A stretch of DNA of 18,739 nt, from positions 1 to 18,739 of the forward strand of contig JBGGMM010000093.1 in assembly GCA_041288045.1 (NCBI GenBank). The letters run 5' to 3'. Positions 903 through 17,709 of the stretch are shown here, in pieces. The notes beneath the pieces are model-generated. The model saw only the letters and a program-made list of their open reading frames with translations. It was not told where the DNA came from and made no database searches. Made by a program: the position numbers and the translations under genes. The first letter of the stretch is position 1, and every line of letters starts with the position of its first letter. The stretch is from Pseudobdellovibrionaceae bacterium. GTDB taxonomy: Bacteria > Bdellovibrionota > Bdellovibrionia > Bdellovibrionales > Bdellovibrionaceae.

Positions 903-3638
903 TCAATCTGCCGAGTAAGCGGAGCTGGGGGGAGTGAAATTCGAAGTCCAGCGGAGAACTTGGCTGATGCGGATTTCGTCGATGGACCCAGAAAGAAATC
1001 GTTGGCCATTGGTGGCTCCAATGGTCAGTGGCGTGTTGCTATTATCGAATAAACTCACGGCGCCAGAGCCTAAAACGGCGGAGCCGATCAATTGGCCGGC
1101 GAAATAAATTTTCACAGTTCCCTGATCCCAAGTGAAGGCGACATGAGTGTAACCAGTCTGCAAAGCTGTTTTTTGTGAAGTGGTGAGATTGGCAGAGTCG
1201 ACTTTCGTCACACTGGTTCCATTGAGGCTTCCCTCGAAATACAAACGGTAATTCACACCTAATTTTTTTATTCCGAATTCCCAGCCCATCTGGTTTTTAG
1301 CCCCCATTCGAGCCAGGATCACTGAGTTGGAAGTGGTCAGGGTGGGAGTTTTCACAAAAGCTTCCACTGTCATTCGGGTCAGTGTCTGGGCCAATGAGGC
1401 GCTGGGCGCAGCTGAAAGAAACTGAGTGCTGCCATTGAAACTTCGAGCTTGAGAAAAAGCGCCCTGAGAGTTGTTGGTCGTTCCATTGTTGGTCAGAGGA
1501 TTGTTATTGGGAGCTGCAAAGCCACCGCTATCCAAATTGGGATTGGCCGAATCCAAATGATAAAGAGCGACCGTTTTCGCCGCCGATTGGCTCCAATTGA
1601 AATTGGCAGGAGTGAGGTCAGAATTTCCGGCTTCATCACGAGCGCGAACACTGACGCTGTGAGAGCCAAGCGAAAGGCCACTCAAGGTCAGTGGTGAACT
1701 GCAACTCGTAAAAGCGGCGCCATCCACCTGGCATTCAAAGCTTCCGGTTTCTGTCGAAGCGAAAGCAAAGGTGGCTGAATTGCCAAAATTGGGATTGGTT
1801 GGAGTCTGGCTCAGATTTGTTTCAGGTGCCAGGCGATCCAGAATCCATTGCAAATGGGTGGCGCTTGATTCAAGCCCAGCCAAAGAGGATTGTTTCAAGT
1901 TCAACTGAAAAATTCCATCCGTTGTTTTTTGCACTGAAAACAGAAAACTTGAATTGGCGCAAATTTGATTCCATTTTCCCGCAGGTTCAAGAATTTCATC
2001 TGCAGAAAGATCACCACCTAAGACCACTTTCATACCATTGATGCAACCGCCAGATAGAGTCAATTGAGTCGAGTTCGACAGATAAGGTGAAGAGGCCGGG
2101 GCGCTCAAAGTAGGCGAAGCCGGGATGACGGAATCTCGCACCCAAGTGAAAGCAAGGCTTCCAGAGGTGTTTTGGGCTTCGTCTTTCTGGTGGATTTGGA
2201 ATTGGTAAGTGGCATCTTGATCTGCAGTCACTTGAAATTGAAATGCTGATTCCAGGCAAGGAGTGTTGAGCTCACGATCTCCTGTCAGAAAAACTTGAGC
2301 TCCGCTTTCGCATTGACCCGTCAAGCTGAGATTTCCGGAGGAGTGAAATGGGGAGCTGACGGGCGAAAGCAGGGTTGGAGCCAAAGGAGCCTGAGTGTCT
2401 CGAACCCAAGTCATTGAAACAGGTGAAGAGCTGAGCATGGTGGCTGGATTTCGCTGAGATAAAGAATAGCTGTAAGTGCCGTCTGTGCTCTGTGAATCAG
2501 TGAATGAAAATCCAGAAGCCACACAAGTCGCTGTTTGAATGCTGCTGCCAGAAAGAAGCACAGTGAATCCCGTTTGGCAACTTCCGCTCAAAGTAAGAGA
2601 GCTTTGATTGGAGGGAAAGGGAGAGATTGAAGGAGAACTCAAAACTGGTGGCAGAGGGAGAGCTGTGTCTCGGATCCACAGAAAGTTCGTCAGCGCCGAT
2701 AAATTGCCGGCAGCATCGGTTTGCAAAAGTGAGTAGGAGTAAGTTCCATCGCTTGTTTGGCTCAATGAAAAGTCAAATTGCGACTCTTGGCAGATCTTGG
2801 AACTGGTTGCATCTCCAGAAATCTGAACATTGGCGCCAGCTTCGCATTCACCCAAAAGGTGCAATTGGTTTTCTGAAGAAGTGTAGGGACTGCTGATGGG
2901 ACTTTGCAGAGTGGGAGCCGCAGGGGCCACAGTGTCTCGTCGCCAAATCAAGGAAACAGAAGCTGAAGTGGCCCCATTGGCATCCTCTTGAATTAAATTG
3001 TAAGTTTTTTGCCCGTCGATCACCTGGGACACTGTCAGTGAGAACGACGATGATTCACAGCTTACTTTTTGCGTGCTATCGCCAGAAAGACGAATTTGAT
3101 TTCCATTGAGGCAAGTGCCTGTGAGCGTGAGAGAATCGGTTTTGGACTCGTAGGGAGAGTGAGTGGGGAAATTTAAAACCGGGGCAGGCACGAAGGAATT
3201 TCGAACCCAGATCAAGGACACTGGGCTTGAGCTATTGCCGGCGGCATCCGTTTGCTTGATTTGAAAAGTGTAGCTCGCATCGCTCGTTTTTGAGACTGCG
3301 AATGAAAAAGCACCCAACTCGGAGCAAACTGTGGCCTGGCTGTCGTCTCCGCTGAGTTCCACTTGGGCTGTGGGCTCGCAGCTTCCGCCGAGGAGCAATT
3401 GGCTGCCACTGAAATGATAGGGGTTGGTGGCCGGGTTGATCAGTGTGATGGTCTCTGGAGCTGTGGTGTCAGGCAAAGTAGTTGTGGTCGTCGTTGTTGT
3501 TGTTGTGGACTCGCTGGCTTCTTCTTCAGCCAGTTTTTCAATCATTTCATCGGGAGTTTTGGCCCCACAGCCTGAAAGCAAAAGGACACAAAACAAAGCT
3601 TGAAAAAGACGGTGACATTTTGAAAATTTGAAAGTCAT
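903..3638 (-). CDS. Large surface lipoprotein/adhesin: Thr linker, tandem Ig-like repeats, C-terminal LamG-like (concanavalin A jellyroll) domain (911 aa)
   Basis: Lipobox LLLSGC (Cys24); poly-Thr linker; six ~90-aa repeats ending in W(V/R/I)xD/N; a seventh Ig-like unit (FECQVDGAAFTSCSSP...VRARDEAGN); LamG-type motifs TVEAFVK, THVAFTWD, GSIDEIRIS. Confidence 0.9.
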   Translation of the reverse strand: MTFKFSKCHRLFQALFCVLLLSGCGAKTPDEMIEKLAEEEASESTTTTTTTTTTLPDTTAPETITLINPATNPYHFSGSQLLLGGSCEPTAQVELSGDDSQATVCSELGAFSFAVSKTSDASYTFQIKQTDAAGNSSSPVSLIWVRNSFVPAPVLNFPTHSPYESKTDSLTLTGTCLNGNQIRLSGDSTQKVSCESSSFSLTVSQVIDGQKTYNLIQEDANGATSASVSLIWRRDTVAPAAPTLQSPISSPYTSSENQLHLLGECEAGANVQISGDATSSKICQESQFDFSLSQTSDGTYSYSLLQTDAAGNLSALTNFLWIRDTALPLPPVLSSPSISPFPSNQSSLTLSGSCQTGFTVLLSGSSIQTATCVASGFSFTDSQSTDGTYSYSLSQRNPATMLSSSPVSMTWVRDTQAPLAPTLLSPVSSPFHSSGNLSLTGQCESGAQVFLTGDRELNTPCLESAFQFQVTADQDATYQFQIHQKDEAQNTSGSLAFTWVRDSVIPASPTLSAPASSPYLSNSTQLTLSGGCINGMKVVLGGDLSADEILEPAGKWNQICANSSFLFSVQKTTDGIFQLNLKQSSLAGLESSATHLQWILDRLAPETNLSQTPTNPNFGNSATFAFASTETGSFECQVDGAAFTSCSSPLTLSGLSLGSHSVSVRARDEAGNSDLTPANFNWSQSAAKTVALYHLDSANPNLDSGGFAAPNNNPLTNNGTTNNSQGAFSQARSFNGSTQFLSAAPSASLAQTLTRMTVEAFVKTPTLTTSNSVILARMGAKNQMGWEFGIKKLGVNYRLYFEGSLNGTSVTKVDSANLTTSQKTALQTGYTHVAFTWDQGTVKIYFAGQLIGSAVLGSGAVSLFDNSNTPLTIGATNGQRFLSGSIDEIRISQVLRWTSNFTPPSSAYSAD
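1833..3470 (-). repeat. Six diverged protein-level Ig-like repeats, each with a conserved Cys pair
   Basis: Consensus PxLxSPxxSPYxSxxxxLxLxGxC...VxLSGD...C....F.F......DGxY.Y...Q.D.AGN.S......W.RD is visible six times in the translation. Confidence 0.85.
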
Positions 3639-3896: not shown

Positions 3897-5072
3897 ATGC
3901 GAATCGCGCCCTGCCATTTGGCAAATGCATTCTTGTTTTTAACTCTTCAGTTTTTTTGTTCGCTTGGTTTTGGCTACGCCTCTTTTATTGGCTATGGCTA
4001 CAGCAACTGCATGACCTGCCATTACAATCCCCATGGCAACGGTCAGCTCAATGATTACGGCCGGGCCCTTTTCGCCAGCGAAATCGCCGCTCGTCCTTTT
4101 TGGAATAAAAAAATCAGCGATGAGGAGCTTGCCAAACGTTCCAGCTTTACTTTTCAAGAGCCAACTCCTCGAGCGATTCATCCCTCTTTCAAATACCGAG
4201 ATCTGTATTTAACCGCAAACCCCGGAGGCGGTGGGACGCAAAGACGGATTCTCATGCAAGCCGACGCCGGGTTGGCCTGGCATTTTGACGAGAAAGACAA
4301 ATACATTCTTGTCTTATCGGCTGGCTACACTCCGGAGCCGGTGAATGCGAGCATTGAGAAGGAAGCTTGGAACTACCATCTGATTTCCCGTGAGCATTAC
4401 CTTCGAATGCAACTTTCTGAGGGGCATTTTCTCTCTGTCGGCTTGATTGATATTCCCTATGGGATTCGCATCGTCGATCACACCGCTTTAAGCCGAGTGG
4501 GAATTGGCTTGGATCAAAACTCGCAAGTGCACGGAGTTCTCTACAATTACGTTGAAGATAAAATTCTTTTTGGACTGCATGGTTTTGTCGGCAATCAAAT
4601 GCGTAATGAAATTGACAGAGTCAATGGCGGCAGCGCCACTTTTGAATACGAAGTCGGCGAAAAAATCACTCTCGGAGCTTCGGCTTTTCATGGAGTTCGA
4701 GACACTGGCAAACAGAGCCTTCTGGGTTTTCACACTCGGGTGGGAGTTGGGAAGGGATCAAGCCTCATGGCCGAATGGGGACTCAATCGCTTGGAGCCTA
4801 AAATGGGTGATGCCACAACCGGAAATTATGGCCTTGTGGTGGGAACCATGCGTTTGGTTCGCGGGCTTGATTTTGAAACTCAGTTTGAAATGTTGAAAAG
4901 TTCTTTTCAGGAAAGCTCTGATGAGCTCTATCGCACTTCTGTCGGTCTGATTTATTTTCCATTTCAAAGATTAGAGCTTCGCAGTCGTGTGGTTGACGGT
5001 CGAAGCCTTTCACCCAACGAAGTGAAAGGAGACACATGGTCCATCCAAAGCCAATTGCATCTCTCCTTGTGA
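3897..5072 (+). CDS. Monohaem cytochrome c / outer-membrane beta-barrel fusion (Cyc2-like architecture), 391 aa
   Basis: Likely start ATG at 3897 gives signal peptide MRIAPCHLANAFLFLTLQFFCSLGFG; CMTCH at 4008-4022 about 11 residues after the predicted cleavage site, followed by GNGQLNDYGR; the rest has alternating amphipathic beta-strands and ends WSIQSQLHLSL. Confidence 0.8.
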   Translation: MRIAPCHLANAFLFLTLQFFCSLGFGYASFIGYGYSNCMTCHYNPHGNGQLNDYGRALFASEIAARPFWNKKISDEELAKRSSFTFQEPTPRAIHPSFKYRDLYLTANPGGGGTQRRILMQADAGLAWHFDEKDKYILVLSAGYTPEPVNASIEKEAWNYHLISREHYLRMQLSEGHFLSVGLIDIPYGIRIVDHTALSRVGIGLDQNSQVHGVLYNYVEDKILFGLHGFVGNQMRNEIDRVNGGSATFEYEVGEKITLGASAFHGVRDTGKQSLLGFHTRVGVGKGSSLMAEWGLNRLEPKMGDATTGNYGLVVGTMRLVRGLDFETQFEMLKSSFQESSDELYRTSVGLIYFPFQRLELRSRVVDGRSLSPNEVKGDTWSIQSQLHLSL

Positions 5073-5614
5073 TCGGACTGATTGTTTTTTCTTCCTGGGC
5101 CCAAGCTGAAATTCAGCGCTCGGTGGGAGTTGGATTTATGAGTTGGCCCGAGCAGGTGGATGTCACAGACAGCACCAAAAGAAGCTTTCCTTCCACTGCA
5201 CAATTCTACACTCCGTCTTTTCATTACGGACACCGGGATTATCGCAATCGCGATGGTTATCTTTATGAAGGCTATGCTTTTTTCGGAAGCGCCGACATTG
5301 AATCCGGCGGAGGACTGACCTATTTTCAGCGACGAGTTCCTGTTTATGGATTTGGCGGAGCCGTGGGTTGGTATTTCAGACCCAACAGCCGACAAGTGAA
5401 CATCGGCTTTTCTTTGCCAATGCAAATTCGCCATGCCCAGTGGACAGACCCTCCAGGCGGCGGAGAAGTCAGCAATAAAAATCTGATCGCCATCGGCGCC
5501 GTCATCGATGCCCGTTGGCGCCTCACTCGAGATTTCGCCATCAACCAAAGATTCGGCGGCTTTCTGGGTTACAAAAGCGCCCTGTGGATGATGAACGTGG
5601 AGTGGACTCTCTGA
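5036..5614 (+). CDS. Small outer-membrane beta-barrel protein (192 aa)
   Basis: RBS AAGGAG 5 nt before ATG; signal peptide ending WAQA; Gly/aromatic alternating strands (YLYEGYAFFG, GFGGAVGWYF, VNIGFSLPM); C-terminal WMMNVEWTL; overlaps the upstream gene by 37 bp. Confidence 0.8.
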   Translation: MVHPKPIASLLVIGLIVFSSWAQAEIQRSVGVGFMSWPEQVDVTDSTKRSFPSTAQFYTPSFHYGHRDYRNRDGYLYEGYAFFGSADIESGGGLTYFQRRVPVYGFGGAVGWYFRPNSRQVNIGFSLPMQIRHAQWTDPPGGGEVSNKNLIAIGAVIDARWRLTRDFAINQRFGGFLGYKSALWMMNVEWTL

Positions 5615-5617
5615 TTT

Positions 5618-6289
5618 TCAATTGTCCATGGCGCCGGCGTTGATCCAGTCGCGGATAGCTTGGATTTGGGCTGAGCTGAGGGCTCCGCCTTGTGGCATTC
5701 GGCCGGCGTTGGGGACTCCGACGGTGACGGCTCGGTAAAGAAGACTGTTGTCGGCGTTTCCGGCAGTGACGGCTCTCATGACTTCGGCATAAGAATTAAA
5801 TCGCTGTTGAGAGTTTCTGGTGTTGTGGCAATTGGCGCAGATGGGGGTGAAGACTCGGTCTCGAAGCACAGAGAAGCGGGGCTCGATCATGCCGCCACCA
5901 GGAGCACCTGGGCTCGTCGGATCTTCAGCCAATCCCACAATCCACAATTTTAATATTTCAAGTTCCATTTCATCCAAGCTGGGTCGAAGCTGCGGCATCA
6001 AGCCCTGACTGGTCTGTTGATAAATGGGGGACAGCTCGGGTTCGCCGGGAACCACCAAGCGGGAGTAAATCAAATAATCCACATTGGCGATATCACTGAT
6101 GTTGCCGTTGACGTTTTCTGGATTGTGGCATTCCACGCAGTGCTTATTCAAAATCACCACAGCCGAACTTTGCAAGCTCTCTTGGCTATTGAGATCGGTT
6201 GAAGCTTCATACACCAGCTCCGACGGCTTTCCGCAATTTTGGAACAGAAGCAGAGTCAGAATGGAAAGTCCTAAAACCCAATACTTCAA
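5618..6289 (-). CDS. Dihaem c-type cytochrome lipoprotein with two planctomycete-cytochrome-C-like domains (223 aa)
   Basis: Probable TTG start at 6289 behind GAGG (ORF track starts at 6328); lipobox LLLFQNC; CVECH (6125-6139) and CANCH (5825-5839), each followed by a V(P/T)(x)G...S.(I/L)Y segment, an MPQ distal-ligand candidate and a W-I closing helix. Confidence 0.88.
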   Translation of the reverse strand: MKYWVLGLSILTLLLFQNCGKPSELVYEASTDLNSQESLQSSAVVILNKHCVECHNPENVNGNISDIANVDYLIYSRLVVPGEPELSPIYQQTSQGLMPQLRPSLDEMELEILKLWIVGLAEDPTSPGAPGGGMIEPRFSVLRDRVFTPICANCHNTRNSQQRFNSYAEVMRAVTAGNADNSLLYRAVTVGVPNAGRMPQGGALSSAQIQAIRDWINAGAMDN

Positions 6290-6297
6290 ATCACACC

Positions 6298-7962
6298 TCA
6301 GTTGTTTTGTGCCCCAGCAGCGAGCCATTCAGTGATCAAATCAATCTCATTTTGGGGTCGATATCCATCCAGTGGCATGGATTGAAGGCCTTCTAGCTCG
6401 GCCAGATCAGCCCGAATCCGCCTGTACATTTTGTGCTGCAAAAGATTGGGATTGCCAGGAACGATGATTCCCTTGCTGACCATCTCTCGGTAATCGGTCA
6501 TGTCGTAACCGCCCTGGCGCTGGACCGAGTTGTGGCATTTCACGCAGTTCACTCCTAAAATGCCTGATTTCGGATTCATCAATTGGGCAAATGTCGGAGC
6601 CGATCCTGTGTAGGCCGGATTGTAATCAGGAAGTGAAATGCGCAAAGTCTTATTTGTTCCCAGCACCGCACCCAATGGATCGCCCAGTTCCAGTCGCAAA
6701 ACCTTGTCCGGGTCATTGCGAAGATCGTCAGAAAAAATAACGTTAAAGGAAACAGTTTTTTGTGAGGGATTGATGTTCAACGAAGTCGATGTGCTGGGAT
6801 CAAACTGATAGTCCCAGTCAAAACGATTTCGCCCTTCGCCGACAATGCCAACAGCTGGGATTTCGCCACTGGGATAAGTCGAGGCGACTTGCACTGGGAC
6901 AGAAATCGGATCCACCATGTCGCCATCGACTTGCACTGTGATTGTGACTTTATTGGCAATTCCCAACTGAGTGGGCTGAATGGTCAAATTCGAAAGAGTG
7001 AATCTCACGCTCGGAGGTGGCGGTGGCGCCGGCAGGTCAATGATTTCAATATTGTTCAATTGAACAGCCAAAGTGTCACTGGCACCCAGGGGCCCGACAG
7101 AAACCAAAGATCCCGGCGAGAGCAAGGCTGTCGTTCCCATGTAAGCATTGATATCCAGATTCTTAAATGTCGTCGCATAACTGATCGGAAAACCGTTCAG
7201 CCGAAAATTCAGACCCTTGACGTGAAGACTCGAAGTTCCGACTTTCAAAGTGGGAAGAGAAAACACATAAGCTGTTTCACCAGAGGGAATCAGCATCCCG
7301 GTCACAGTCACGGAAAGCTGCACTCCAGTCAGATTGGGAATGGTTTTGCCATTGAGTGAGACCAAAGAAGAATTGAGATTCCAAGTCAGCACTCGACGAT
7401 CAAAGTTGGTGATGGTGACATTGGCTCCATTCACCCGAGTGGTTGTTGTGGTTCCATTGATTTTTGGAATCAGCTGAGAAGCAGTTTCAAATTCAGGTTT
7501 GTAAACTTCGGCCACAGGCGTGGTCGTCCCGCATTGGGCCTTGTCTCTTTGATAGGTCTGCCATTGCAAGCGAAAGGAGCTGATCACTTCGGTGTTTTGG
7601 CTCCCGGTGTAGGGTGGGTTGTGAGAGCCGCTGACTGCGTACTGTGAAATTTTCGAATATCCCACCTGCATAAATCCGGCAAAGGCCGTTTTCACATCTG
7701 GAGAAGCAAAAGTTCCCTTTCCGGGTCCATCGACATGGCAGTTTTTGCAAGTGTAGCTCAGGAAGGGATGAAAGCCCCGAGAAAAAACGGTGATGTCTTC
7801 TTCGCTGCAGATATCAGCTGCATTGTAAGTGACAATGCCACTGCTGCTAAAGCTTGTGAAATTTTCGGCAGTTTGACCTTTTCCACAATTGTTATAGAAA
7901 ACGACAAGGCCTAAGCCCAAGCCGAATACTCCTAACAAGCGGAAAAGTTTTTTTGTTCTCAC
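6298..7962 (-). CDS. Dihaem cytochrome c lipoprotein with central beta-rich and Calx-beta-like domains (554 aa)
   Basis: Probable GTG start at 7962 behind AAGGAAG; lipobox VFYNNC; CKNCH (7735-7749); poly-Pro hinge then Calx-beta-like segment (SVRF...VSFNVIFSDDLRNDPDKVLRLEL); C-terminal CVKCH (6532-6546)...IVPGNP...SMP...EWLAAGAQNN. Confidence 0.88.
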   Translation of the reverse strand: MRTKKLFRLLGVFGLGLGLVVFYNNCGKGQTAENFTSFSSSGIVTYNAADICSEEDITVFSRGFHPFLSYTCKNCHVDGPGKGTFASPDVKTAFAGFMQVGYSKISQYAVSGSHNPPYTGSQNTEVISSFRLQWQTYQRDKAQCGTTTPVAEVYKPEFETASQLIPKINGTTTTTRVNGANVTITNFDRRVLTWNLNSSLVSLNGKTIPNLTGVQLSVTVTGMLIPSGETAYVFSLPTLKVGTSSLHVKGLNFRLNGFPISYATTFKNLDINAYMGTTALLSPGSLVSVGPLGASDTLAVQLNNIEIIDLPAPPPPPSVRFTLSNLTIQPTQLGIANKVTITVQVDGDMVDPISVPVQVASTYPSGEIPAVGIVGEGRNRFDWDYQFDPSTSTSLNINPSQKTVSFNVIFSDDLRNDPDKVLRLELGDPLGAVLGTNKTLRISLPDYNPAYTGSAPTFAQLMNPKSGILGVNCVKCHNSVQRQGGYDMTDYREMVSKGIIVPGNPNLLQHKMYRRIRADLAELEGLQSMPLDGYRPQNEIDLITEWLAAGAQNN

Positions 7963-7972
7963 GTCATCTTCC

Positions 7973-9469
7973 TTAAGCAATCTTTTTCATGCGATCAATT
8001 TCAGTGGACGAAAAGGTTCGCGGCAGAACTTTATCGATTTGACTCATTTGACCATTGAAAGAAAGCCAGTTGATGAAAGCAGCAGCTGCAGCCCGATCCG
8101 GAGAAGAAATCAACGGATCGGCAGCTCCCTGGCCAGCATTCATGTAACCCAACTGGGAGCCAGCAGCGCTGGGTGCCGCCGCAGGATTAATGGCAATCAT
8201 GTACATGGCACCACGAACTCCGCCATCACTGGTCCATTCAGCGCCAGCCAAATCCGATTCAGGTGAAGTGGTAGAGCCATCTGTCGAAACAACAATGAAA
8301 GCTTTTTTGCCGAGAGCCATGGCTGTCTGTAAAATCTGGCCAATGATTCGCCCGGCAGTCAGATCGCGGCCATCACCCGTGGTGCGAGTTCCATCATGGT
8401 AATCATATCCACCCATGTTCAAATTGGCGGATCCAGCATTGCCATTCAGGGCATTGAAAACAAGCGAACTAAAAACATAATCTCTTGAATTCATCGCCGT
8501 GTTGTTTTGCAAATTCCAAATGGCGGCGACTTGAGCATTGCCTCTGGGATCGGTGTTGTTGCCGTTGGCAGAACCCACCAAGGCCGTGTTGTCTTGAGTG
8601 CGACAAGTGATCACGCTCTGGAGAAGGTTTCCACTGTTCAGACCGACGTATTTGCTAGCCTGATAGGCTGAGAGCTGTTGAATCGTTTGAAACAGAGTTC
8701 CAGCCCGCTTCGCAGCCACCAGTGGATCTAGACTTCCGCCGACGCCGAGAGCTCCGGTGATGTCTTGGTAATTCGCAACAACCAAAGGTGCCGGAGGAGG
8801 CAAAAAGGCAGGCATTTGTCCAATGCCAGTGGCCGTGTTGGAAGTTCCAAGATTGGCCAAAATTTTTCCGTTCAAGCCCATGCCGCGAGCAAGGCCCGTG
8901 ATATCAAAATTATTTGTCGAAGTGTCATCCTGTGAAGTCACTGAAATTCCCACAAACACACTGGATGAAAGAGTGGAGGCAGCGGCCGTAGCGCGAATTC
9001 CACTCAAGAGGGTGGAACCGCCAAAAAAAGGAGCGCGATTGGCAAATTCAGCATCCGCAGTGAAGGCGTTGGCTTTTCCCCAACCCATTTTTGAATAGGA
9101 GGGGAGCAGATTTCCACCTTGATCCAAAGGCAGCCAGTGAGAGGAAAGATTGGCACCACCAGAAAGATTCAAAGTGATCAGTGGCACCCAGCCACCGGTC
9201 CCGGCGGCGCAGTTGATGGCATTTTGAGCCACTGCAGATTTCGAAAGAAACATCGAAAAAAGAGGCTGACTGAGAAGTGTGCCAGTGAATGAAATCACTC
9301 CAGTCGCCAACAGATCGCGGCGGGTGAGAAGCTTTCCGCCATGGGCCTCTTGATGGGCATTGAGCTTTTGCTGATTTTCAAAAGCCTTTGCTTCCACTTC
9401 TTCTTTGCTCAACGCGGTTTCAATGAGATTCTCTTTGAGATTTTCGTTTTGTTTTTTATTTTTCCCCAT
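7973..9469 (-). CDS. Tat-exported DUF1501-like protein (498 aa)
   Basis: Twin-arginine motif LTRRDLL then a hydrophobic stretch and AVA cleavage-like site; ITLNLSGGAN, GGYDYHDG (compare GGWDTH of DUF1501 proteins) and IVVSTDG motifs; RBS AAGGGG. Confidence 0.75.
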   Translation of the reverse strand: MGKNKKQNENLKENLIETALSKEEVEAKAFENQQKLNAHQEAHGGKLLTRRDLLATGVISFTGTLLSQPLFSMFLSKSAVAQNAINCAAGTGGWVPLITLNLSGGANLSSHWLPLDQGGNLLPSYSKMGWGKANAFTADAEFANRAPFFGGSTLLSGIRATAAASTLSSSVFVGISVTSQDDTSTNNFDITGLARGMGLNGKILANLGTSNTATGIGQMPAFLPPPAPLVVANYQDITGALGVGGSLDPLVAAKRAGTLFQTIQQLSAYQASKYVGLNSGNLLQSVITCRTQDNTALVGSANGNNTDPRGNAQVAAIWNLQNNTAMNSRDYVFSSLVFNALNGNAGSANLNMGGYDYHDGTRTTGDGRDLTAGRIIGQILQTAMALGKKAFIVVSTDGSTTSPESDLAGAEWTSDGGVRGAMYMIAINPAAAPSAAGSQLGYMNAGQGAADPLISSPDRAAAAAFINWLSFNGQMSQIDKVLPRTFSSTEIDRMKKIA

Positions 9470-9490
9470 GGAACTAACCCCTTTTCAATC

Positions 9491-10129
9491 TTAAAGCACC
9501 AATGTGTCCAAAGACGCCAACATGGATGTGCACATAAAAAGTGCTGCATCATGAGCCGTATTGGCCGCATTGGCATTGCCGAAAGACGAGTGAAGTGCGC
9601 CTAAAACAATATCGGCCTCTGCTGAATCCGCATCCCGTGACCAACAAGATCTGGAGATTCGAGACAGAACGTCGCGAAGAGCTGTGTCCGCTGGGAGAGT
9701 GGTGGATGTCAGATTGTAGCCGATGAAAATTCTGGGAGTTCCAGATCTTTCTGCATCAATCAGATCTCTGCAAACTTCACCAGCAATCGAAGCTGAGGCC
9801 ATGAGCATCGGAGCAGTCACAGTTTTCACTGCTCCTGTTTCGGACACAGTTCCGGCTTTTGCCGCGTACATTTGCAAAGTTCGATCCGAAGGAAGGCCTG
9901 ATCCCAGGCAAGTGGTGTAATGATCTAGAATCTGCTTGGAATAGACCGTCGCCACAGTTTTGGTATCCGGAAGCAGAGTGGGATCATCTTCACTCGCTAA
10001 AGAGAATTCGCCTCCGACTGATTTCATGTCCACCAGTTCCCAGCGCCCGCAGCCTTGTCCGAGACCCAGAATGATCAAAGCGCCAGAAGCCAGAGCCGCT
10101 GTGAGTCTGACAATTGTTTTCTTTGTCAT
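9491..10129 (-). CDS. Cys-containing helical lipoprotein of unknown function (212 aa)
   Basis: ATG at 10129 behind GGAGA, overlapping the upstream stop (ATGA); lipobox LGQGC; four further Cys (TTCL, EVCR, RSCW, FMCT). Confidence 0.85.
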   Translation of the reverse strand: MTKKTIVRLTAALASGALIILGLGQGCGRWELVDMKSVGGEFSLASEDDPTLLPDTKTVATVYSKQILDHYTTCLGSGLPSDRTLQMYAAKAGTVSETGAVKTVTAPMLMASASIAGEVCRDLIDAERSGTPRIFIGYNLTSTTLPADTALRDVLSRISRSCWSRDADSAEADIVLGALHSSFGNANAANTAHDAALFMCTSMLASLDTLVL

Positions 10130-12393
10130 CGCAATTCTCCCAGGCAATTGGTGGTGGTGACGATTTTCTTAAAGAGATAATCCAATTTGTACTGTCCGTC
10201 GGTTTCAAATTCTTTGGCGGCCGTGGTGATCAGCGATTGATCAAAGCTCTGCGGTTCGCGTTTGCAAACACTGGCAAAAACTCTCTGAGCCAAACACTTT
10301 GAGTACTGAGCGGATTCGGAAACCATGCGACCGAACTCTTTCACTCCTCGGCCAGCCGTTGGGCCTCTCCAGCCAAAATAGCCCATGCCCCAAGTGTCAA
10401 TGGTGGCATTTTGAAATGAGTTGTCAGTGATCACTCGGCCATTGGGAAAGACCTGCTCATTGTGATTCATCTTGGTCGCTACAAAAGAAACGTTTCCGAG
10501 ATTTGGCAGATTGGTCAGTGCCGGATCATTGTTTTTAAGACCTGCCAACATTCCCATGGAAGTGTCTTCGTTATTGGCGTTGGCAGGAAGCCTTGGCACC
10601 ATGAACGAATGCTTGGCAAATCCATTTGAAAAAGTGAAGTAGGCAAAGGCCCCTCGCAGCGGATCCATTTGCGAATGGCAAGACCTGCAGTTGGAAGTGA
10701 ATTTCGTGTGGCTGCCGCCAGGGAAGCGATCCACATCACGACCAATCATGGCGTCACTGCCCGAAGAATTGGACCAGCGATCAATCGGAGTGCAAAGAAA
10801 TTCGCGGAAAGTGTATTCGACAAGCCGTCGGTTGGTTCCAGCCACAGCATGTGCGGCCATAAAAGCTCTTGAAGTCAGAAGGCCGGCCGGGTCGGGATGG
10901 GCAACATCGACAGTGCCGTTAAAGACCCTTTGGCCGTCTTTTCGAACCAACACTTTGGCAAGATCAAAGCCCCCAGCTTGCAAAGATTCATAGTGACGAT
11001 TGGATGTGAGCAGATCGCGCACAGCATGCGAAGGGACGGCCGCTTTGGTTGGATCGGCCATATAAAAGTAGTTTCCAGTGAGAAGTGTTCTGGCGTCCAA
11101 TTTGTCTCTGACAGCGCCAATCATGGTGGCTGTGAAATCATTGAGAGAAGTCGAAATCGTCTCTTCACGGGTTGACATTTTCGCTGCCATATCGCGAACA
11201 GTGATATTGAGAAATCCCGGATTTTGAGTGGCAATTCCTGCAGCCGCAAAAGAATTTCCCTGATCAATCAATTCAGCCATTTGTTGAATGACTGGATCGG
11301 TGACCGGAGTTCGAAGCCCGACAATGCGCTCATAAATTGTCTGTGCCTGCTGCATTGAAGTTGTGATGCGTGAATTGATATCAATCGAAAGAAGATTCGG
11401 CGGCACCAGGCGAGGGGCGCCAGAGCCTAGGATTTCGGCTTCAGTCAAAGCCCGACAGTAAATGGCCATCATATAGATTTTTCCCACCCAGGGCCAGTGA
11501 CGGCTGTGCTTGGAGGCGCTTTCCCCACCAGCTGTGGGCTTTGAAATATCCAAGAGTCCGCTGGGCTCATTGCCGATGGCCAGGCGCATATCCAAGGCTC
11601 TGGTTACAGATCCCGAAGAATCGTCTGGAGTGTCATAAGTGACATTGGTGCCGGAAGAATGCCAGTTGGAAAAATTGCCGTTAAAGCCATCATTCGCCAC
11701 AAAGGGGCCTGTGTCATTGCCATTTTCATCCGAGTTGTAAAGTCGGGCTACGCCGCCAGCTGTGCGTACCAGGTAGACGTGTTGTTTTTTTCCAAGCAGG
11801 AAATTTTCTCTCGGCGAGAGGAGGTAATTCACATAATCACCATTGCGGTTCTCTAAGTTATTGGAGTTTCCAGTGGTGCGAGTGGTGCCGCGGTAAGCGT
11901 CTCCCATATTGTAAAACTGCTGCAATGAAAAATTGTGGAATTCTTTAAAGTAAGTATCGGCCAAAGAGACAAAGCGAAGCCCCTGCTTGAAAGTTCCAGC
12001 TGCCAGGTCGTCATCTTCGTGATTGGCCAACTTTTCAGAAGGTGTTCGGCTTTCCACCCACATTTCAATCGTCATGGCATTGGAGGCTTTGCAGGCATTG
12101 ATGATCTTATCTGCTGAAGCCACCGAGCGGATGATATTGGGCTCAACAATTTCTAAATGGTCAGCTTGGATGTTGTAAAGAGCATTGGGTCTTAAGATTT
12201 GCAAATTCAGAGGATTCGGTGCCAGATCCCGGATGATTCCTGTAGCCGCTTCAATATTGGCTGGTTGAAAAACGTAGAGAGAAATCGCCGAATCACGAGT
12301 CGACCCGTTGCCATTTGAATCCAATGCCAAAGCGGCGCTGGGGACTGTCACTGTCAGACAAAATGTCAGAAGCCTTTGAAATCTTGGCATCAT
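10126..12393 (-). CDS. Secreted LamG-like + monohaem DUF1588/DUF1585-like protein (755 aa)
   Basis: Signal peptide ending AALA; N-terminal LamG-like motifs (MTIEMWV; WVGKIYMMAIYCRALTEAEI); C-terminal half has AGLLTSRAF...NRR...FREFLC...CRSCHSQMDPL (CxxCH at 10675-10689) and GVKEFGRMV...CLAQRVF...LFKKIV, resembling PSCyt3/DUF1588 and DUF1585. Confidence 0.82.
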   Translation of the reverse strand: MMPRFQRLLTFCLTVTVPSAALALDSNGNGSTRDSAISLYVFQPANIEAATGIIRDLAPNPLNLQILRPNALYNIQADHLEIVEPNIIRSVASADKIINACKASNAMTIEMWVESRTPSEKLANHEDDDLAAGTFKQGLRFVSLADTYFKEFHNFSLQQFYNMGDAYRGTTRTTGNSNNLENRNGDYVNYLLSPRENFLLGKKQHVYLVRTAGGVARLYNSDENGNDTGPFVANDGFNGNFSNWHSSGTNVTYDTPDDSSGSVTRALDMRLAIGNEPSGLLDISKPTAGGESASKHSRHWPWVGKIYMMAIYCRALTEAEILGSGAPRLVPPNLLSIDINSRITTSMQQAQTIYERIVGLRTPVTDPVIQQMAELIDQGNSFAAAGIATQNPGFLNITVRDMAAKMSTREETISTSLNDFTATMIGAVRDKLDARTLLTGNYFYMADPTKAAVPSHAVRDLLTSNRHYESLQAGGFDLAKVLVRKDGQRVFNGTVDVAHPDPAGLLTSRAFMAAHAVAGTNRRLVEYTFREFLCTPIDRWSNSSGSDAMIGRDVDRFPGGSHTKFTSNCRSCHSQMDPLRGAFAYFTFSNGFAKHSFMVPRLPANANNEDTSMGMLAGLKNNDPALTNLPNLGNVSFVATKMNHNEQVFPNGRVITDNSFQNATIDTWGMGYFGWRGPTAGRGVKEFGRMVSESAQYSKCLAQRVFASVCKREPQSFDQSLITTAAKEFETDGQYKLDYLFKKIVTTTNCLGELR

Positions 12394-12408
12394 TCCCCCA
12401 AAAAAACT

Positions 12409-14220
12409 TTAGGGAATCACTGTTGACAGCAAGCTCGCAGAGCCTGAGTTGTTCAGTGGTTCCGCATTGATCCTGGCGCCGACAGCAAAGAAATTTCCGG
12501 ATGTCGAGACACTGGATCCAAATCGATCATTCGCCGCTCCCTTTAAAGAGACCACGCGACGAGAGAAAACATGATTTGCGCCACTTGCTTTGAAGTGGTC
12601 CACGGCACCGGCTTGAGTCCTAGCGTCCGGTGCACCGATGAAAATTCCGGCAGTGCCCATGGCAACCGAAGAGCCAAATCGGCTGAGATTGGTGTTGGTT
12701 GGATCATCCAGCATTTGCAGACTGCGATCGGCTTTAACGACAATTGCCAGACCCGGTCGGCTGGTGGCGCTTCGCTCGTAGCCCGGAGCTCCGACAACGA
12801 CGATGCCATTGTGAATGGCAACAGCAGCTCCCAATTCAGATCCCAATCCCACAGTCAGCATAGCTGTTCCTGTGCCGGCTGAATTGGTGACTGTCAGATT
12901 GGATTTGGTGCTTGAAGTGCGAAGCGCCGTGGTGACTTCGCTGCCACTTTGATAAAGGAAAATTTCTCCACTGAGAGTGTCCCGGTAAAGCGGACTTCCG
13001 GGAGCTCCGACAGCCAAAAGAGTTCCTTGAACAGCCACAGCAGCCCCAAAATAAATTCGATTGCTGATCGGACTTGCGATTCGAGCTGTTTGATTCAGAC
13101 TGGCGAGATCATACAGGTACACAGCTCCGGCATCGGTGTTTTCACCGGGCGCGCCGACAGCCAATTGAGTGGCATCGACAGACACTGACCAGCCGAAGCG
13201 GCCGCTGGCTACGCTCCCTGAAATCTTTCGCACTTGCGAGAAAGTGGCGCCGCTTCGGCGAAAGACATGCACAGCTCCCATATTGGAATTATTTTTTGCA
13301 GAGCCAATCACCAGGACATCGCCCTTCAAAGCCAAAGCTTGAGGCGAATCCTCAGGAGCGCCGCGATCCGAAGTGACAGAAGTGTCTTCAGTGCGAAGGA
13401 TCTGGGTGCGAGTCCAAGTGTTCGCACCAGAGAGCTGGTAAATGTGCACGGCTCCCGTGTTGCCATTGCCGTTGGTGACTCCGTCATCACCAGAAGCTAG
13501 AAGAGCTGCTGTCGATCCGTCAATGGCCACGGCCGAACCGAGCTGATCGAAAGCGTCCAAGGATTCAGCAACAATCTGTTCAGGGTAGCAGTTGTTTTTA
13601 AATGTCACTGTCAGTGTTTGTGCCGGTGAACGTTTGCTGGCATCTGCCACACTTTGTAAAAAGACGCTGAAAGTTTCAGTGCCTTCATAGCATTTCATTG
13701 TGGTGTCGTTGTCATTGGCGCCAAAAGTGATGTTGGTGCTTTGTCCAGGAGCCAAAGTTCCGTTCGGTGCTCGCAGAATGTTAATGCCGTTCATGTCCAC
13801 AGCGACTCGATTGCCCGAATCATCAAGAGCGCGAAGAGTGCCGCCGGTTCGTCTTTGAAAAACGACGGTTGCGCCTTGGTTGCAATTGGCACCGACCGAA
13901 GCTGAAAGGTACTGAAGAGAAATTTGCGCTGAATTGCTTCGGCCGCCATTGGCTCCGGTTCCGGAAAGCACAGTCAGTGAAGCGCCAGAAAGTGGGCCTG
14001 CACTGGGAGGGTTGACTGTGCTGAGATTGCAAGTGGGAACTCCGCCTGGAGGAATTGTAGTTGGGGGAGTGCTGCCAGTGCCTGAGCCATCATTCGAGCC
14101 CAGGCTGCTACTTCCGGAAGAGGGAGAAGAAGTCTCCCAATTTTGTCCAATGCAGTTTTGAAATGCTAAGAGCAGAAGTGATGTGAGCGCGATCCACTTG
14201 ATGCGGTCCCTGTTCTTCAA
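12409..14220 (-). CDS. Lipoprotein with a seven-bladed FG-GAP (integrin-alpha-like) beta-propeller (603 aa; 612 aa if ATG 14247 is used)
   Basis: Lipobox LAFQNC; Ser/Gly/Pro linker; four-Cys N-terminal domain; seven repeats of (F/L)GxxVA.....L.VGAP....GAV. TTG at 14220 has AGGGGG 6 nt upstream, while ATG 14247 has no SD. Confidence 0.88.
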   Translation of the reverse strand: MKNRDRIKWIALTSLLLLAFQNCIGQNWETSSPSSGSSSLGSNDGSGTGSTPPTTIPPGGVPTCNLSTVNPPSAGPLSGASLTVLSGTGANGGRSNSAQISLQYLSASVGANCNQGATVVFQRRTGGTLRALDDSGNRVAVDMNGINILRAPNGTLAPGQSTNITFGANDNDTTMKCYEGTETFSVFLQSVADASKRSPAQTLTVTFKNNCYPEQIVAESLDAFDQLGSAVAIDGSTAALLASGDDGVTNGNGNTGAVHIYQLSGANTWTRTQILRTEDTSVTSDRGAPEDSPQALALKGDVLVIGSAKNNSNMGAVHVFRRSGATFSQVRKISGSVASGRFGWSVSVDATQLAVGAPGENTDAGAVYLYDLASLNQTARIASPISNRIYFGAAVAVQGTLLAVGAPGSPLYRDTLSGEIFLYQSGSEVTTALRTSSTKSNLTVTNSAGTGTAMLTVGLGSELGAAVAIHNGIVVVGAPGYERSATSRPGLAIVVKADRSLQMLDDPTNTNLSRFGSSVAMGTAGIFIGAPDARTQAGAVDHFKASGANHVFSRRVVSLKGAANDRFGSSVSTSGNFFAVGARINAEPLNNSGSASLLSTVIP

Positions 14221-14442: not shown

Positions 14443-15123
14443 TTAGAAACTAGCGCCTAAATAAAAACGCAGTCCCTGACCTGTCAGATCAGTGACCAAT
14501 GTCTTTTTGTCTTTTTCCAATCGATTGCGATCGATTTGATCGATATTTCCACCCAATTCTTCATTCTTAATTGTGTGAGTCAGAGGTTGAGTGGCGCCAA
14601 TCCAATCGCAACCCATGGTGAAATTCTCCCATTGCCACTGATTTCCAATGACGATGGATGCGCCCAGTGAGTCAGCAGTGAATTTCATTGAGCTGTCGTA
14701 GTCCGATACAAAAATGCCATCGTAATTGTATTTATAGTCTATGTGGCGTTGATCCAATCCAACCCGAGCGTAAAAGCTGTTTCCAAAAAATCGTTTGTAA
14801 TGAAGGCCAAAGGAAGTCCCTGTCACGTCATAATTATCTAAAAATAAATTATTATCGCCGGTTCTTCCGCTGGTGACATCAGCCATGATCATGGAATTCC
14901 GATCCAAGAAATAACCAACTGACAAACCGCCCCCAGTCGTTGCTGTGGGATTCGCCCCAAAGAGCTGAGCTGAAATTTGATAGGATTTGTTCATTCGATT
15001 GTATTCAGAGGAATCTTCGTAAATCGCCTTTGGTTTGGCAATGATGGAAAGATTTTCCTCAGCCGCCGCTGCGAAGGTTAATTGGGCGGCAAGAAGGGTC
15101 AGGGTTAGGCTCATGAGTTTCAT
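14443..15123 (-). CDS. Outer-membrane beta-barrel protein (226 aa)
   Basis: RBS AGAGGA; signal peptide MKLMSLTLTLLAAQLTFA; amphipathic strands (GLSVGYFL, FGLHYKRF, FYARVGLD, IGNQWQW); C-terminal LRFYLGASF with terminal Phe. Confidence 0.85.
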   Translation of the reverse strand: MKLMSLTLTLLAAQLTFAAAAEENLSIIAKPKAIYEDSSEYNRMNKSYQISAQLFGANPTATTGGGLSVGYFLDRNSMIMADVTSGRTGDNNLFLDNYDVTGTSFGLHYKRFFGNSFYARVGLDQRHIDYKYNYDGIFVSDYDSSMKFTADSLGASIVIGNQWQWENFTMGCDWIGATQPLTHTIKNEELGGNIDQIDRNRLEKDKKTLVTDLTGQGLRFYLGASF

Positions 15124-16239: not shown

Positions 16240-17709
16240 TCAATCCCATTCTTTCTTGCACTGATAATTCTGCCGGCTTTGCAAGTAGCGATAGCCGGTG
16301 TAGAGCTGGTGGGCTCCCATGAGGGTGCCCATCACGTAGGATTCTTTTTTTGAAAAAGCGCGAAGATCGCCAGAGCCTCGGGAGTCCATTCCGCCCGAGG
16401 CGTAAGAGCGTGAACCCTTGGCACCATTTTTTCCAGCCCAATCTTTGCCGAAATAGGAAACGGTGTTGAACATATTCCAGAAGAGCCAGCCTTTTTGAAA
16501 TTGGCTGTCAGGACTGAAATTTTGCGCGATCACTTCGGAGCCGACGCTATGAGAAGCTAGGCCGGCAATGGCAATGGCTCGGTGCTTGTTCGGAGTTGTG
16601 TGACTTCGCCAAGTTCCAGTTTTTGAGTCCCAATCCAGTTTTTCTCCTTGAACTCGGGCCACAGCTTCATGGGAGAGCTCGTGAGTGAGAAAGCTTCCGA
16701 CTCCGCCAGCGGCCATTCGTAAAAGCCCTCCGGCTGTGAAATCTTCAGGACAAGCCACATTCCAGCGAAATCGATCGCTTTTGGCTTCAGCTTCTGTGGG
16801 TCTTTCACCTGGTCCCTCAGTCACCAAATCGCCGGCAGCAGAGGGGATTTCCAGACGAATGGGATTGAGTTCAGAGGCGGTGTTGGGAAAAAGGTGTCGA
16901 AGAGTGCAGAGCTGAAATTCAAATTCATCTTCAAAATGTCGAGTTTGTTTAGCTGCTTTCATTTTGCAGCTTTGGTCTTGAGTTTTCAGTGGACAGGAGT
17001 CGATGGCTTTTTTCACTTCCGAAGCTCGCATTTGAGCCAGCAGAGTTTTTTTAAAATGATAAGTTCTGGGCGAATCGCTTTTCGACGAATCAAACAAAAG
17101 TTGAAGTGGTAAAGAGGCTTTCTGGCAAGCTTGAGAAATTCTTGAGGCTTCGTTCATTTCGGATGAAATGTCTTTTGGAAATTCCTTTTGCTTGAGGCCC
17201 TGACTGATGAGGCCCATTTCATTTTTGATCGGAGAGGGAATCTGCTTGGGGTGCCAAAGCGTTTCTTTTTGCACGGCATGTGTCAGGGCTTTGGAATCCT
17301 CCAAGTCGGAAAGCAGTGAGCTGTCTTTGAGGATTTTTTCCAGTTGATCAAGATCTGAGATTTCTTGAATTCCTGCCAGACGCCGACCTTCTCGCAAAGC
17401 TTGGATTTTCTGCAGCCACTGCGCTTGCCGAGTGGTTTCGATCTGGACGAAATCATCAAATTTGGTCTCTTTGGATTGAACACCAAGATCACAAAGAGAT
17501 TTTTTCTCCACTTTCAATTTCAAGGGTAAGATTTTTCCGAGCTCGCCAAGGTCTTTTTGATTTTTCACTGGTGCACTTTTTATTTCGGGACAGACAATTT
17601 GCTTTTCGGAAAGCGAGCAGTCTTCAGATCGAGCCTGCCAAGGGATCAATGAAATGAAAAAAAGAAGAGTGAGGGTCTGTTTCACAGAGTCACTGATCGG
17701 CGTTTTCAT
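16240..17709 (-). CDS. Secreted protein with C-terminal HExxH, M50-like metallopeptidase-type domain (489 aa)
   Basis: Signal-like N-terminus; charged helical, Cys-containing N-terminal two thirds; GSFLTHELSH (HExxH at 16669-16683) followed by IAIAG, WLFWNMFN and a GD motif. Confidence 0.7.
   Translation of the reverse strand: MKTPISDSVKQTLTLLFFISLIPWQARSEDCSLSEKQIVCPEIKSAPVKNQKDLGELGKILPLKLKVEKKSLCDLGVQSKETKFDDFVQIETTRQAQWLQKIQALREGRRLAGIQEISDLDQLEKILKDSSLLSDLEDSKALTHAVQKETLWHPKQIPSPIKNEMGLISQGLKQKEFPKDISSEMNEASRISQACQKASLPLQLLFDSSKSDSPRTYHFKKTLLAQMRASEVKKAIDSCPLKTQDQSCKMKAAKQTRHFEDEFEFQLCTLRHLFPNTASELNPIRLEIPSAAGDLVTEGPGERPTEAEAKSDRFRWNVACPEDFTAGGLLRMAAGGVGSFLTHELSHEAVARVQGEKLDWDSKTGTWRSHTTPNKHRAIAIAGLASHSVGSEVIAQNFSPDSQFQKGWLFWNMFNTVSYFGKDWAGKNGAKGSRSYASGGMDSRGSGDLRAFSKKESYVMGTLMGAHQLYTGYRYLQSRQNYQCKKEWD

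Follow-up and report, generated by a model that had tools for sequence, protein, structure and literature searches.

An uncharacterised envelope cytochrome cassette of Bdellovibrionota, related to PSCyt/DUF1501 modules and linked to a cytochrome-porin

The window analysed here is a stretch of 18,739 nucleotides, contig JBGGMM010000093.1 of a Pseudobdellovibrionaceae bacterium, in which positions 3897 to 14220 hold eight genes for predicted envelope proteins, including several c-type cytochromes. The cassette that they form is real, conserved and uncharacterised, and is a relative of the PSCyt/DUF1501 modules; a search of the full-text literature, with subscription papers and supplements outside its coverage, found no account of it. 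The locus has three layers: a four-gene core, a barrel module, and optional add-ons bearing LamG, FG-GAP and Calx-beta domains. New features are the core’s probable split PSCyt3 architecture, putative relays of FoxE type, and a linkage, recurring in deep lineages, with a Cyc2-like porin, a small barrel and YceI.

Six genes on the minus strand, starting at TTG 14220, ATG 12393, ATG 10129, ATG 9469, GTG 7962 and TTG 6289, are spaced with these starts by 15, -4, 21, 10 and 8 bp and converge on a plus-strand pair of barrel genes, with 3 bp separating the facing stops. The original prediction had described this layout, and its gap lengths agree with the listed starts. It had also counted six CxxCH motifs in four proteins, and the same six were found: C569 of the 755-residue protein, C72 and C473 of the 554-residue protein, C64 and C164 of the 236/223-residue protein, and C57 of the barrel (in its 410-residue reading). 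The motifs are invariant among the aligned homologues of the four haem proteins (35/35, 26/26, 17/17 and 11/11), and 116 of 120 barrel homologues carry one; because of this conservation, the six are not chance occurrences. Export signals were judged from sequence patterns only. Lipobox cysteines are conserved (C27 0.98, C26 0.92, with an N31-C32 pair invariant), as are the twin arginines R50-R51 in 99% of 151 sequences of the family exported by twin-arginine translocation (Tat), in agreement with the earlier assignment of the products as four lipoproteins, one Sec and one Tat protein. The host genome codes for a cytochrome c assembly protein and TatC, so that haem attachment and Tat export are both possible.

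The core begins with a Sec-type protein of 755 residues (10126..12393, minus strand), in which a LamG-like region (about 25-330) precedes a monohaem core of PSD4/PSCyt3/PSD2 type (about 341-755) with CRSCH at 569. Its Pfam scores lie below cut-off (PSD2 20.4 vs 25.8; PSCyt3 14.5 vs 27), PSD2 is matched by 22 of its 35 homologues, and profile-profile comparison recovers the PSCyt3 haem domain followed by PSD2, the C-terminal part aligning with residues 360-620 of canonical PSCyt3 proteins (hhalign 97%, E 3e-11; n = 23 PSD5-PSD4-PSCyt3-PSD2 proteins). Conserved residues include H467, H515, R522, R523, D553, R556 and K641. The PSD3/PSD5 region of the canonical proteins is absent from this polypeptide, and its counterpart appears to be the separate downstream lipoprotein of 212 residues (9491..10129, minus strand). 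This family gave no informative Pfam match among 37 members; residues 50-212 of the lipoprotein match canonical PSCyt3 residues 60-251 (84.7%, E 7e-6; reversed control 0.3%). Because the lipoprotein corresponds to residues 60-251 and the haem protein to residues 360-620, the core likely holds a canonical PSCyt3 protein divided between two genes, whose order is reversed and one of which encodes a lipid-anchored half. The host genome also encodes a canonical PSD5-PSD4-PSCyt3-PSD2 lipoprotein, accompanied by a DUF1552 Tat protein (contig C24, 16595-20336, L172). At two other loci (L277:2226-13889 and L281:10577-14541), the lipoprotein and cytochrome parts are apparently fused into proteins of 916-1801 residues that lie between the PSD and Tat genes.

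The Tat protein of the core has 498 residues (7973..9469, minus strand) and is predicted to adopt an alkaline-phosphatase-superfamily fold as a distant DUF1501-like protein. Among the 151 family sequences, D182, D356 and H358 are invariant, D397 and D415 are 96-98% conserved, and position 183 is T or S in 86%; from the positions of the motifs, D182, D356, H358, D397 and D415 constitute a candidate metal site. The structural model (predicted local distance difference test, pLDDT, 80) was matched by VIA to NPP, EptC, MCR-1 and sulfatases (Z 12.1, root-mean-square deviation 3.9, 216 aligned residues), and all 50 rows listed belong to the superfamily at Z 11-12.1; Foldseek retrieved structures of the same superfamily weakly (E at least 0.02). 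In the Atlas, the model reaches template-modelling (TM) scores of 0.63/0.62 to DUF1501 clusters over 349 residues, with predicted models on both sides, and of 0.84-0.87 to unnamed Bdellovibrionota and Pseudomonadota clusters. Pseudomonadota is the commonest phylum in the look-alike clusters, and look-alikes occur in other phyla. The automatic Atlas label of these clusters, “general secretion pathway protein GspF,” was rejected, as they share no Pfam family and the model is of the alkaline-phosphatase fold.

Sequence support for kinship between the Tat protein and DUF1501 is weak. No informative Pfam family was found among 38 members; DUF1501 (PF07394) was matched by 0/38 at E ≤ 0.1 and by nothing in the host genome, DUF1552 (PF07586, with its HXXSHH motif) was likewise matched by 0/38, and comparison with the host genome’s own DUF1552 protein gave an hhalign value of 8%. 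A DUF1501 profile match of 84% at full length was discounted because the signal was mostly lost, falling to 1.3% (E 0.04), once the signal peptide had been removed. The original prediction’s kinship with PSCyt/PSD and Tat-partner modules thus holds for the haem protein by its 97% profile match and for the Tat protein by structural resemblance to DUF1501 clusters (TM 0.63), while membership of the Tat protein in Pfam DUF1501 or DUF1552 does not.

The fourth core gene (6298..7962, minus strand) encodes a dihaem lipoprotein of 554 residues, with haem 1 at C72, a beta-rich middle containing a Calx-beta domain, and a FoxE/PSCyt1-type haem 2 at C473. An optional gene follows for a second dihaem lipoprotein of 223 residues (5618..6289, minus strand; 236 residues from ATG 6328), composed of two FoxE/PSCyt1/LIC11213-like domains. 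PSCyt1 scores above the Pfam cut-off in both proteins, and FoxE (5MAB) is the best solved relative of both (E 4e-10 for the larger and 2e-12 for the smaller); the smaller also matches NF047812 at E 1e-18, yet below the family cut-off. As in FoxE, homologous c-type domains are combined with a candidate Met ligand: the 554-residue protein conserves H114 in the haem 1 region and M529 in the haem 2 region, and M211-P212 is invariant in the 223-residue family. No match to the Tat, PSD, barrel or LamG parts came up in sequence searches of solved structures. All three of the ligand-binding folds named earlier were recovered. The Calx-beta profile matches Na/Ca-exchanger CBD structures (NCX CBD1, E 4e-9), and the FG-GAP propeller (PF14312, E 5e-33) lies in the lipoprotein encoded by 12409..14220 on the minus strand (603 residues from TTG 14220, or 612 from ATG 14247), an optional add-on of the long form of the cassette. 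The LamG domain scores below cut-off in the window’s own 755-residue protein, and PF13385 is matched by 15 of 24 homologues, at best with 1.7e-7.

The barrel module consists of a fused cytochrome-porin of 391 residues (3897..5072, plus strand), in which an N-terminal CxxCH domain in Cyc2 register is joined to a predicted 16-strand barrel, and its partner gene for a predicted small outer-membrane barrel of 192 residues (5036..5614, plus strand), which gave no Pfam match and whose fold was deduced from its sequence pattern. The model of the large barrel has 16 strands (pLDDT 64 overall, below 50 for residues 18-91), and its Foldseek relatives are Omp38, OmpT and OprP (E 1e-11 to 2e-10); M120, H195 and H388 are invariant. 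It has one N-terminal CxxCH fused to a predicted 16-strand porin and a length of at least 365 residues, which are features of Cyc2 according to the available text of 10.1101/228056. Compared with 56 metagenomic proteins chosen by the published Cyc2 motif, the haem domain matches at 94% and in exact register, a match driven partly by CxxCH itself, and the barrel part alone at 0.4%; a profile of the 56 scores the barrels at about 11 bits at best. The upstream PxFAR[QK][TY] element is present in 0/116 barrels and the downstream PxL in 0/116, with A, P and F conserved at their positions in 88, 93 and 113 of the 116. The architecture of the barrel is therefore like that of Cyc2, but the published motif test excludes it from the family. 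A search for the Cyc2-motif pattern in viral contigs found nothing, and a search of plasmid sequences gave no match.

The distribution of the cassette was followed in 40 regions around Tat matches, the best 80 of 171 confirmed PSD loci and 20 hand-picked distant loci; these are similarity-ranked or hand-picked rather than random, and removal of duplicates left 113 distinct PSD + Tat loci. The core order PSD, lipoprotein, Tat, dihaem protein is kept in 100 of the 101 loci that hold all four genes. Tat protein matches occur in 35 of 61 relatives’ genomes and PSD core matches in 87 of 201 genomes from the phylum, including 12 of 14 of genus g10; the other 114 gave no match. The prey-directed role that had been suggested is without support, because the system is patchy within the phylum and its look-alikes occur in other phyla, mostly in Pseudomonadota clusters. 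The module is mostly present in one or two copies per genome, and core and barrel occur together in the named Bdellovibrio genomes HCB274, HCB290, HCB209 and HCB185ZH. Two core forms exist, and the window holds the long one; LamG is fused to PSD in 34 of the 113 loci, and all 29 of the loci with an FG-GAP gene have a LamG-fused core protein (29/29). In one genome (L024, G007:C1), long and short forms stand back to back and divergent.

In 35 of the 113 loci the fetched DNA shows a barrel next to the core, in four cases a larger two-haem variant; with about 1% expected by chance (a rough estimate from a 20-kb window, a genome of about 3 Mb and about two barrel genes), the adjacency recurs in 24 of 68 identity clusters at 60% and 7 of 31 at 50%. 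All four classes of side and orientation relative to the core were seen (14, 11, 7 and 3 loci). The gene-neighbourhood check that had been proposed for the CxxCH-barrel thus bears out co-occurrence with the operon. The eight-gene system originally described stands as a recurring linkage of barrel and operon, and gives way, as one fixed unit, to a four-gene core, a separately mobile barrel module often accompanied by YceI, and optional add-ons. Among the 20 distant loci, 10 have the barrel, 8 of these with YceI. Within core loci, the small barrel was found only alongside the large barrel (26/26), as was YceI (10/10), and hand-picked barrel neighbours tested as YceI were so in 11 of 11 cases. 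Barrel matches are present in 30 of 35 genomes with a Tat gene vs 11 of 26 without, counts in which kin are not independent.

Where a barrel is away from the core, its neighbours are YceI, lipoproteins of PSCyt1 type and, at certain loci, a divergent second module that is PSD2/DUF1501-like. Examples of the latter (L176:7681-11622, L177:10732-13130 and L180:1835-4262) comprise a PSD2-like monohaem protein, a weakly DUF1501-like Tat protein of about 560 residues and a small lipoprotein, with barrels flanking; in L180, FN3 and cytochrome parts adjoin YceI and a barrel. The host genome has a second pair of cytochrome-barrel and small-barrel genes converging on YceI (C108, 31010-33451, L173), with 36% identity to the window’s barrel.

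Other genes of the window surround the cassette. Divergent from the barrel gene, 903-3638 on the minus strand encodes a lipoprotein of 911 residues that has Ig-like repeats and carries a LamG domain at its C-terminus; since a homologue (E 2e-33) adjoins the PSD gene in locus L059, this protein may be an accessory in some loci. At the contig edge (5-628, minus strand) is a predicted secreted protein that ends in Gly/Ser/Thr/Asn low-complexity repeats (GGSST). Upstream of the operon and on the same strand, 14443-15123 encodes an outer-membrane beta-barrel of 226 residues (PF13505 slightly below cut-off, E 3e-6), of which C157 holds a paralogue; it was not counted as part of the cassette, as no homologue was flagged across the 40 loci around Tat matches. 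Farther upstream (16240-17709, minus strand), a predicted secreted protein of 489 residues has no informative Pfam match and contains HELSH, an HExxH-like motif and possible zinc-peptidase signature.

The core and the cytochrome-porin module probably constitute a functionally linked envelope redox system. A fuller mechanism, in which this system would be a membrane-tethered envelope redox enzyme, likely oxidising or remodelling a carbohydrate-type substrate, is put forward tentatively and with more doubt than conviction. The order of the genes, the conservation of the haem motifs, the homologies of the domains and the recurrence of the barrel linkage are shown; the steps that follow are inferred, with contextual support from the carbohydrate-binding modules of PSCyt proteins (PMC5615132), the electron-transfer role proposed for DUF1501 loci (PMC3542564), the company of chitin synthases (PMC5122149) and the need for Cbp2D/E in growth on insoluble cellulose (PMC8981238, PMC12542752). 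The PSCyt3-type haem protein and the split-off lipoprotein half would reassemble into one lipid-anchored PSCyt3-like unit, on which the Tat protein, exported in folded form, would dock so that its putative metal site is brought close to the haem, the two together forming the catalytic centre. Electrons would be passed on by FoxE-type haems of the lipoproteins, with presumptive His/Met ligation, and would probably come from the quinone pool through YceI, as has been proposed for Cellvibrio Cbp2D/E. The 16-strand cytochrome-porin may serve as an outer-membrane gate whose haem plug, on the periplasmic side, connects the chain with the exterior or with substrate coming in, and the LamG, FG-GAP and Calx-beta domains could choose or position that substrate.

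Several observations weigh against this picture. Most core loci (78 of 113) have no barrel in the fetched DNA, some being truncated by contig ends, and many barrels lie far from any core. The window has no YceI gene, and that of the host genome stands beside the second barrel pair on C108. The haem domain of the barrel is modelled at low confidence. For the Tat protein, Foldseek found no PDB match at E ≤ 0.001, the metal site derives from motif positions rather than inspected coordinates, and the mature region has almost no sequence signal to DUF1501, the full-length match being largely driven by the signal peptide. LamG is absent from 79 of the 113 core loci, LamG and FG-GAP domains can bind proteins as well as sugars, and no analysis here points to a specific substrate.

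An alternative to enzymatic remodelling, and an unlikely one, is metal oxidation, in which the Cyc2-like porin would take electrons from dissolved Fe(II) or Mn(II), FoxE-type cytochromes would pass them inward for respiration or detoxification, and the Tat/PSD core would handle the oxidised metal. The exact register of the barrel haem domain with the Cyc2 motif (94%), its 16 strands as in Cyc2 (available text of 10.1101/228056), the position of FoxE as best solved relative of both lipoprotein cytochromes (E 2e-12 and 4e-10), and the acidic candidate metal site of the Tat protein are all consistent with this. Set against them are the missing PxFAR[QK][TY] and PxL elements (0/116), a barrel part with no detectable homology to Cyc2-motif proteins (0.4%), and the fact that the FoxE-type domain is the widespread PSCyt1 domain. 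A scan with consensus motifs found no FNR- or Fur-like box upstream of the operon or the barrel unit. Bdellovibrio-like bacteria are heterotrophs and are not known as iron oxidisers. A respiratory conduit of MtrCAB type to solid electron acceptors is very improbable: porin genes do adjoin several cytochromes, but the barrel has 16 strands and one haem instead of 26 strands with a decahaem insert (available text of 10.1101/228056), and no protein of the cassette has more than two CxxCH motifs.

The varied side and strand of the barrel, the majority of core loci that lack it, the barrel matches in 11 of 26 genomes without the Tat family, and the convergent transcription of the two units in the window would fit two independent modules, a periplasmic PSD/Tat enzyme and a barrel-YceI-cytochrome unit that share only regulation or haem supply and form no trans-membrane complex. 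This is improbable, given that deep lineages show the linkage again (10 of 20 distant loci), that barrels are also linked to the second, divergent PSD/Tat module, and that barrel matches accompany the Tat gene in 30 of 35 genomes, although kin among these genomes are not independent. There is, finally, a slim chance that the system is a non-catalytic scaffold or sensor, in which a structural Ca2+ or other cation is bound by the Tat protein, and redox state or surface contact, possibly with prey, is reported by the haem proteins. In alignment with DUF1501, three residues are lost from the Tat family, namely the Asp following GG, the SEFGR Arg and the TDHG His, and the cassette includes Calx-beta and FG-GAP domains, which are calcium-binding adhesive folds. 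Against a sensor, no constant signalling neighbour (kinase, chemoreceptor or sigma factor) was noticed among neighbours screened only with profiles made for this analysis, 114 of 201 phylum genomes gave no match, the system was found in 1 of 7 genomes of the same-family genus g3, and the look-alike clusters are mostly of Pseudomonadota.

If the linked redox system is generalised, it becomes a phylum-wide machine of eight protein families, in which a Cyc2-type cytochrome-porin, FoxE-type relays and a quinone carrier are wired to a haem and alkaline-phosphatase-fold metal centre. This extension is speculative and rather unlikely to hold in full. If it is true, an alkaline phosphatase fold would be carrying out redox reactions instead of hydrolysis, and the linked porin would show the route, missing so far, that electrons and substrate take in the PSCyt/DUF1501 class as a whole. 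Planctomycetes, verrucomicrobia and other groups have PSCyt/PSD and Tat-partner modules in abundance and in many paralogues, for which the literature searched gives no function; a concrete wiring hypothesis is supplied by the recurrent association of the module analysed here with a Cyc2-like porin, FoxE-type cytochromes and YceI. Because the module is compact, mostly present in one or two copies and found in named Bdellovibrio genomes, knockouts could test it directly. The occurrence of Cyc2-like and FoxE-like parts outside known iron oxidisers also matters for metagenomic annotation of iron cycling.

Among known systems, MtrCAB/MtoAB differs in its 26-strand barrel with a decahaem insert, which the 16 strands and at most two CxxCH motifs per protein of the cassette do not match. 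FoxE of Rhodobacter ferrooxidans (PDB 5MAB), the best solved sequence relative of both lipoprotein cytochromes, shares their conserved Met-Pro candidate distal ligand, whereas in the cassette the domains belong to predicted lipoproteins that also contain Calx-beta or other inserts; a foxYZ context was not noticed at cassette loci, where no profile search for FoxY or FoxZ was made. Members of the alkaline phosphatase superfamily such as NPP, EptC/MCR-1 and sulfatases resemble the Tat protein in predicted core fold (Z about 12) and apparently in a D-x-H motif and strand-end Asp at the expected metal-ligand positions. Identity is about 10-12%, the Tat protein is paired with haem proteins, and judging from motif spacing its invariant D182, not Ser, Thr or Cys, appears near the nucleophile position.

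Cyc2 of iron oxidisers has the same single N-terminal CxxCH, with A-x-P-x-F at the same spacing before it and L-x-x-x-G-R after it, and a predicted 16-strand porin. The cassette barrel differs in having IGYGY for AR[QK][TY]G, no PxL and a barrel part without detectable homology, and in travelling with the small barrel, YceI and PSCyt modules, not with rus/cyc1 genes. The parts list of Cellvibrio japonicus Cbp2D/Cbp2E, a YceI quinone binder, c-type cytochromes and a substrate-binding or FN3 module, recalls the cassette (compare L180), and the available text of PMC8981238 and PMC12542752 describes these YceI and c-type cytochrome proteins as needed for growth on insoluble cellulose. The likeness is one of analogy only. 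Cbp2D/E are fused secreted proteins with no PSD/Tat core or porin. A literature search pairing “Bdellovibrio” with “YceI,” with subscription papers outside its coverage, found nothing.

The nearest relatives are the PSCyt3 module of planctomycete-verrucomicrobia-chlamydiae (PVC) and myxobacterial genomes (PSD3-PSD5-PSD4-PSCyt3-PSD2 with a DUF1552 Tat partner) and its PSCyt1/2-PSD1 + DUF1501 sister. They likewise set a monohaem PSD protein beside a Tat-exported partner and have an optional LamG domain of carbohydrate-binding type, and the available parts of PMC3542564 and PMC5615132 assign them no function. In those parts, DUF1501 loci are proposed as electron-transfer modules (PMC3542564), and PSCyt proteins are described as carrying carbohydrate-binding modules, including PF13385, and as enriched in epilimnion (upper-layer) genomes (PMC5615132); chitin synthases are accompanied by DUF1501/DUF1800, according to the text available of PMC5122149. 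The comparison also took in PMC10654088, PMC13741234, PMC12981691 and PMC11495043. Unlike the known modules, the cassette likely divides its PSCyt3 protein between two genes of reversed order and anchors one half by lipid; its Tat partner belongs to neither Pfam family, DUF1501 or DUF1552; and it possesses a dihaem lipoprotein as a fixed fourth gene together with a linked cytochrome-porin module.

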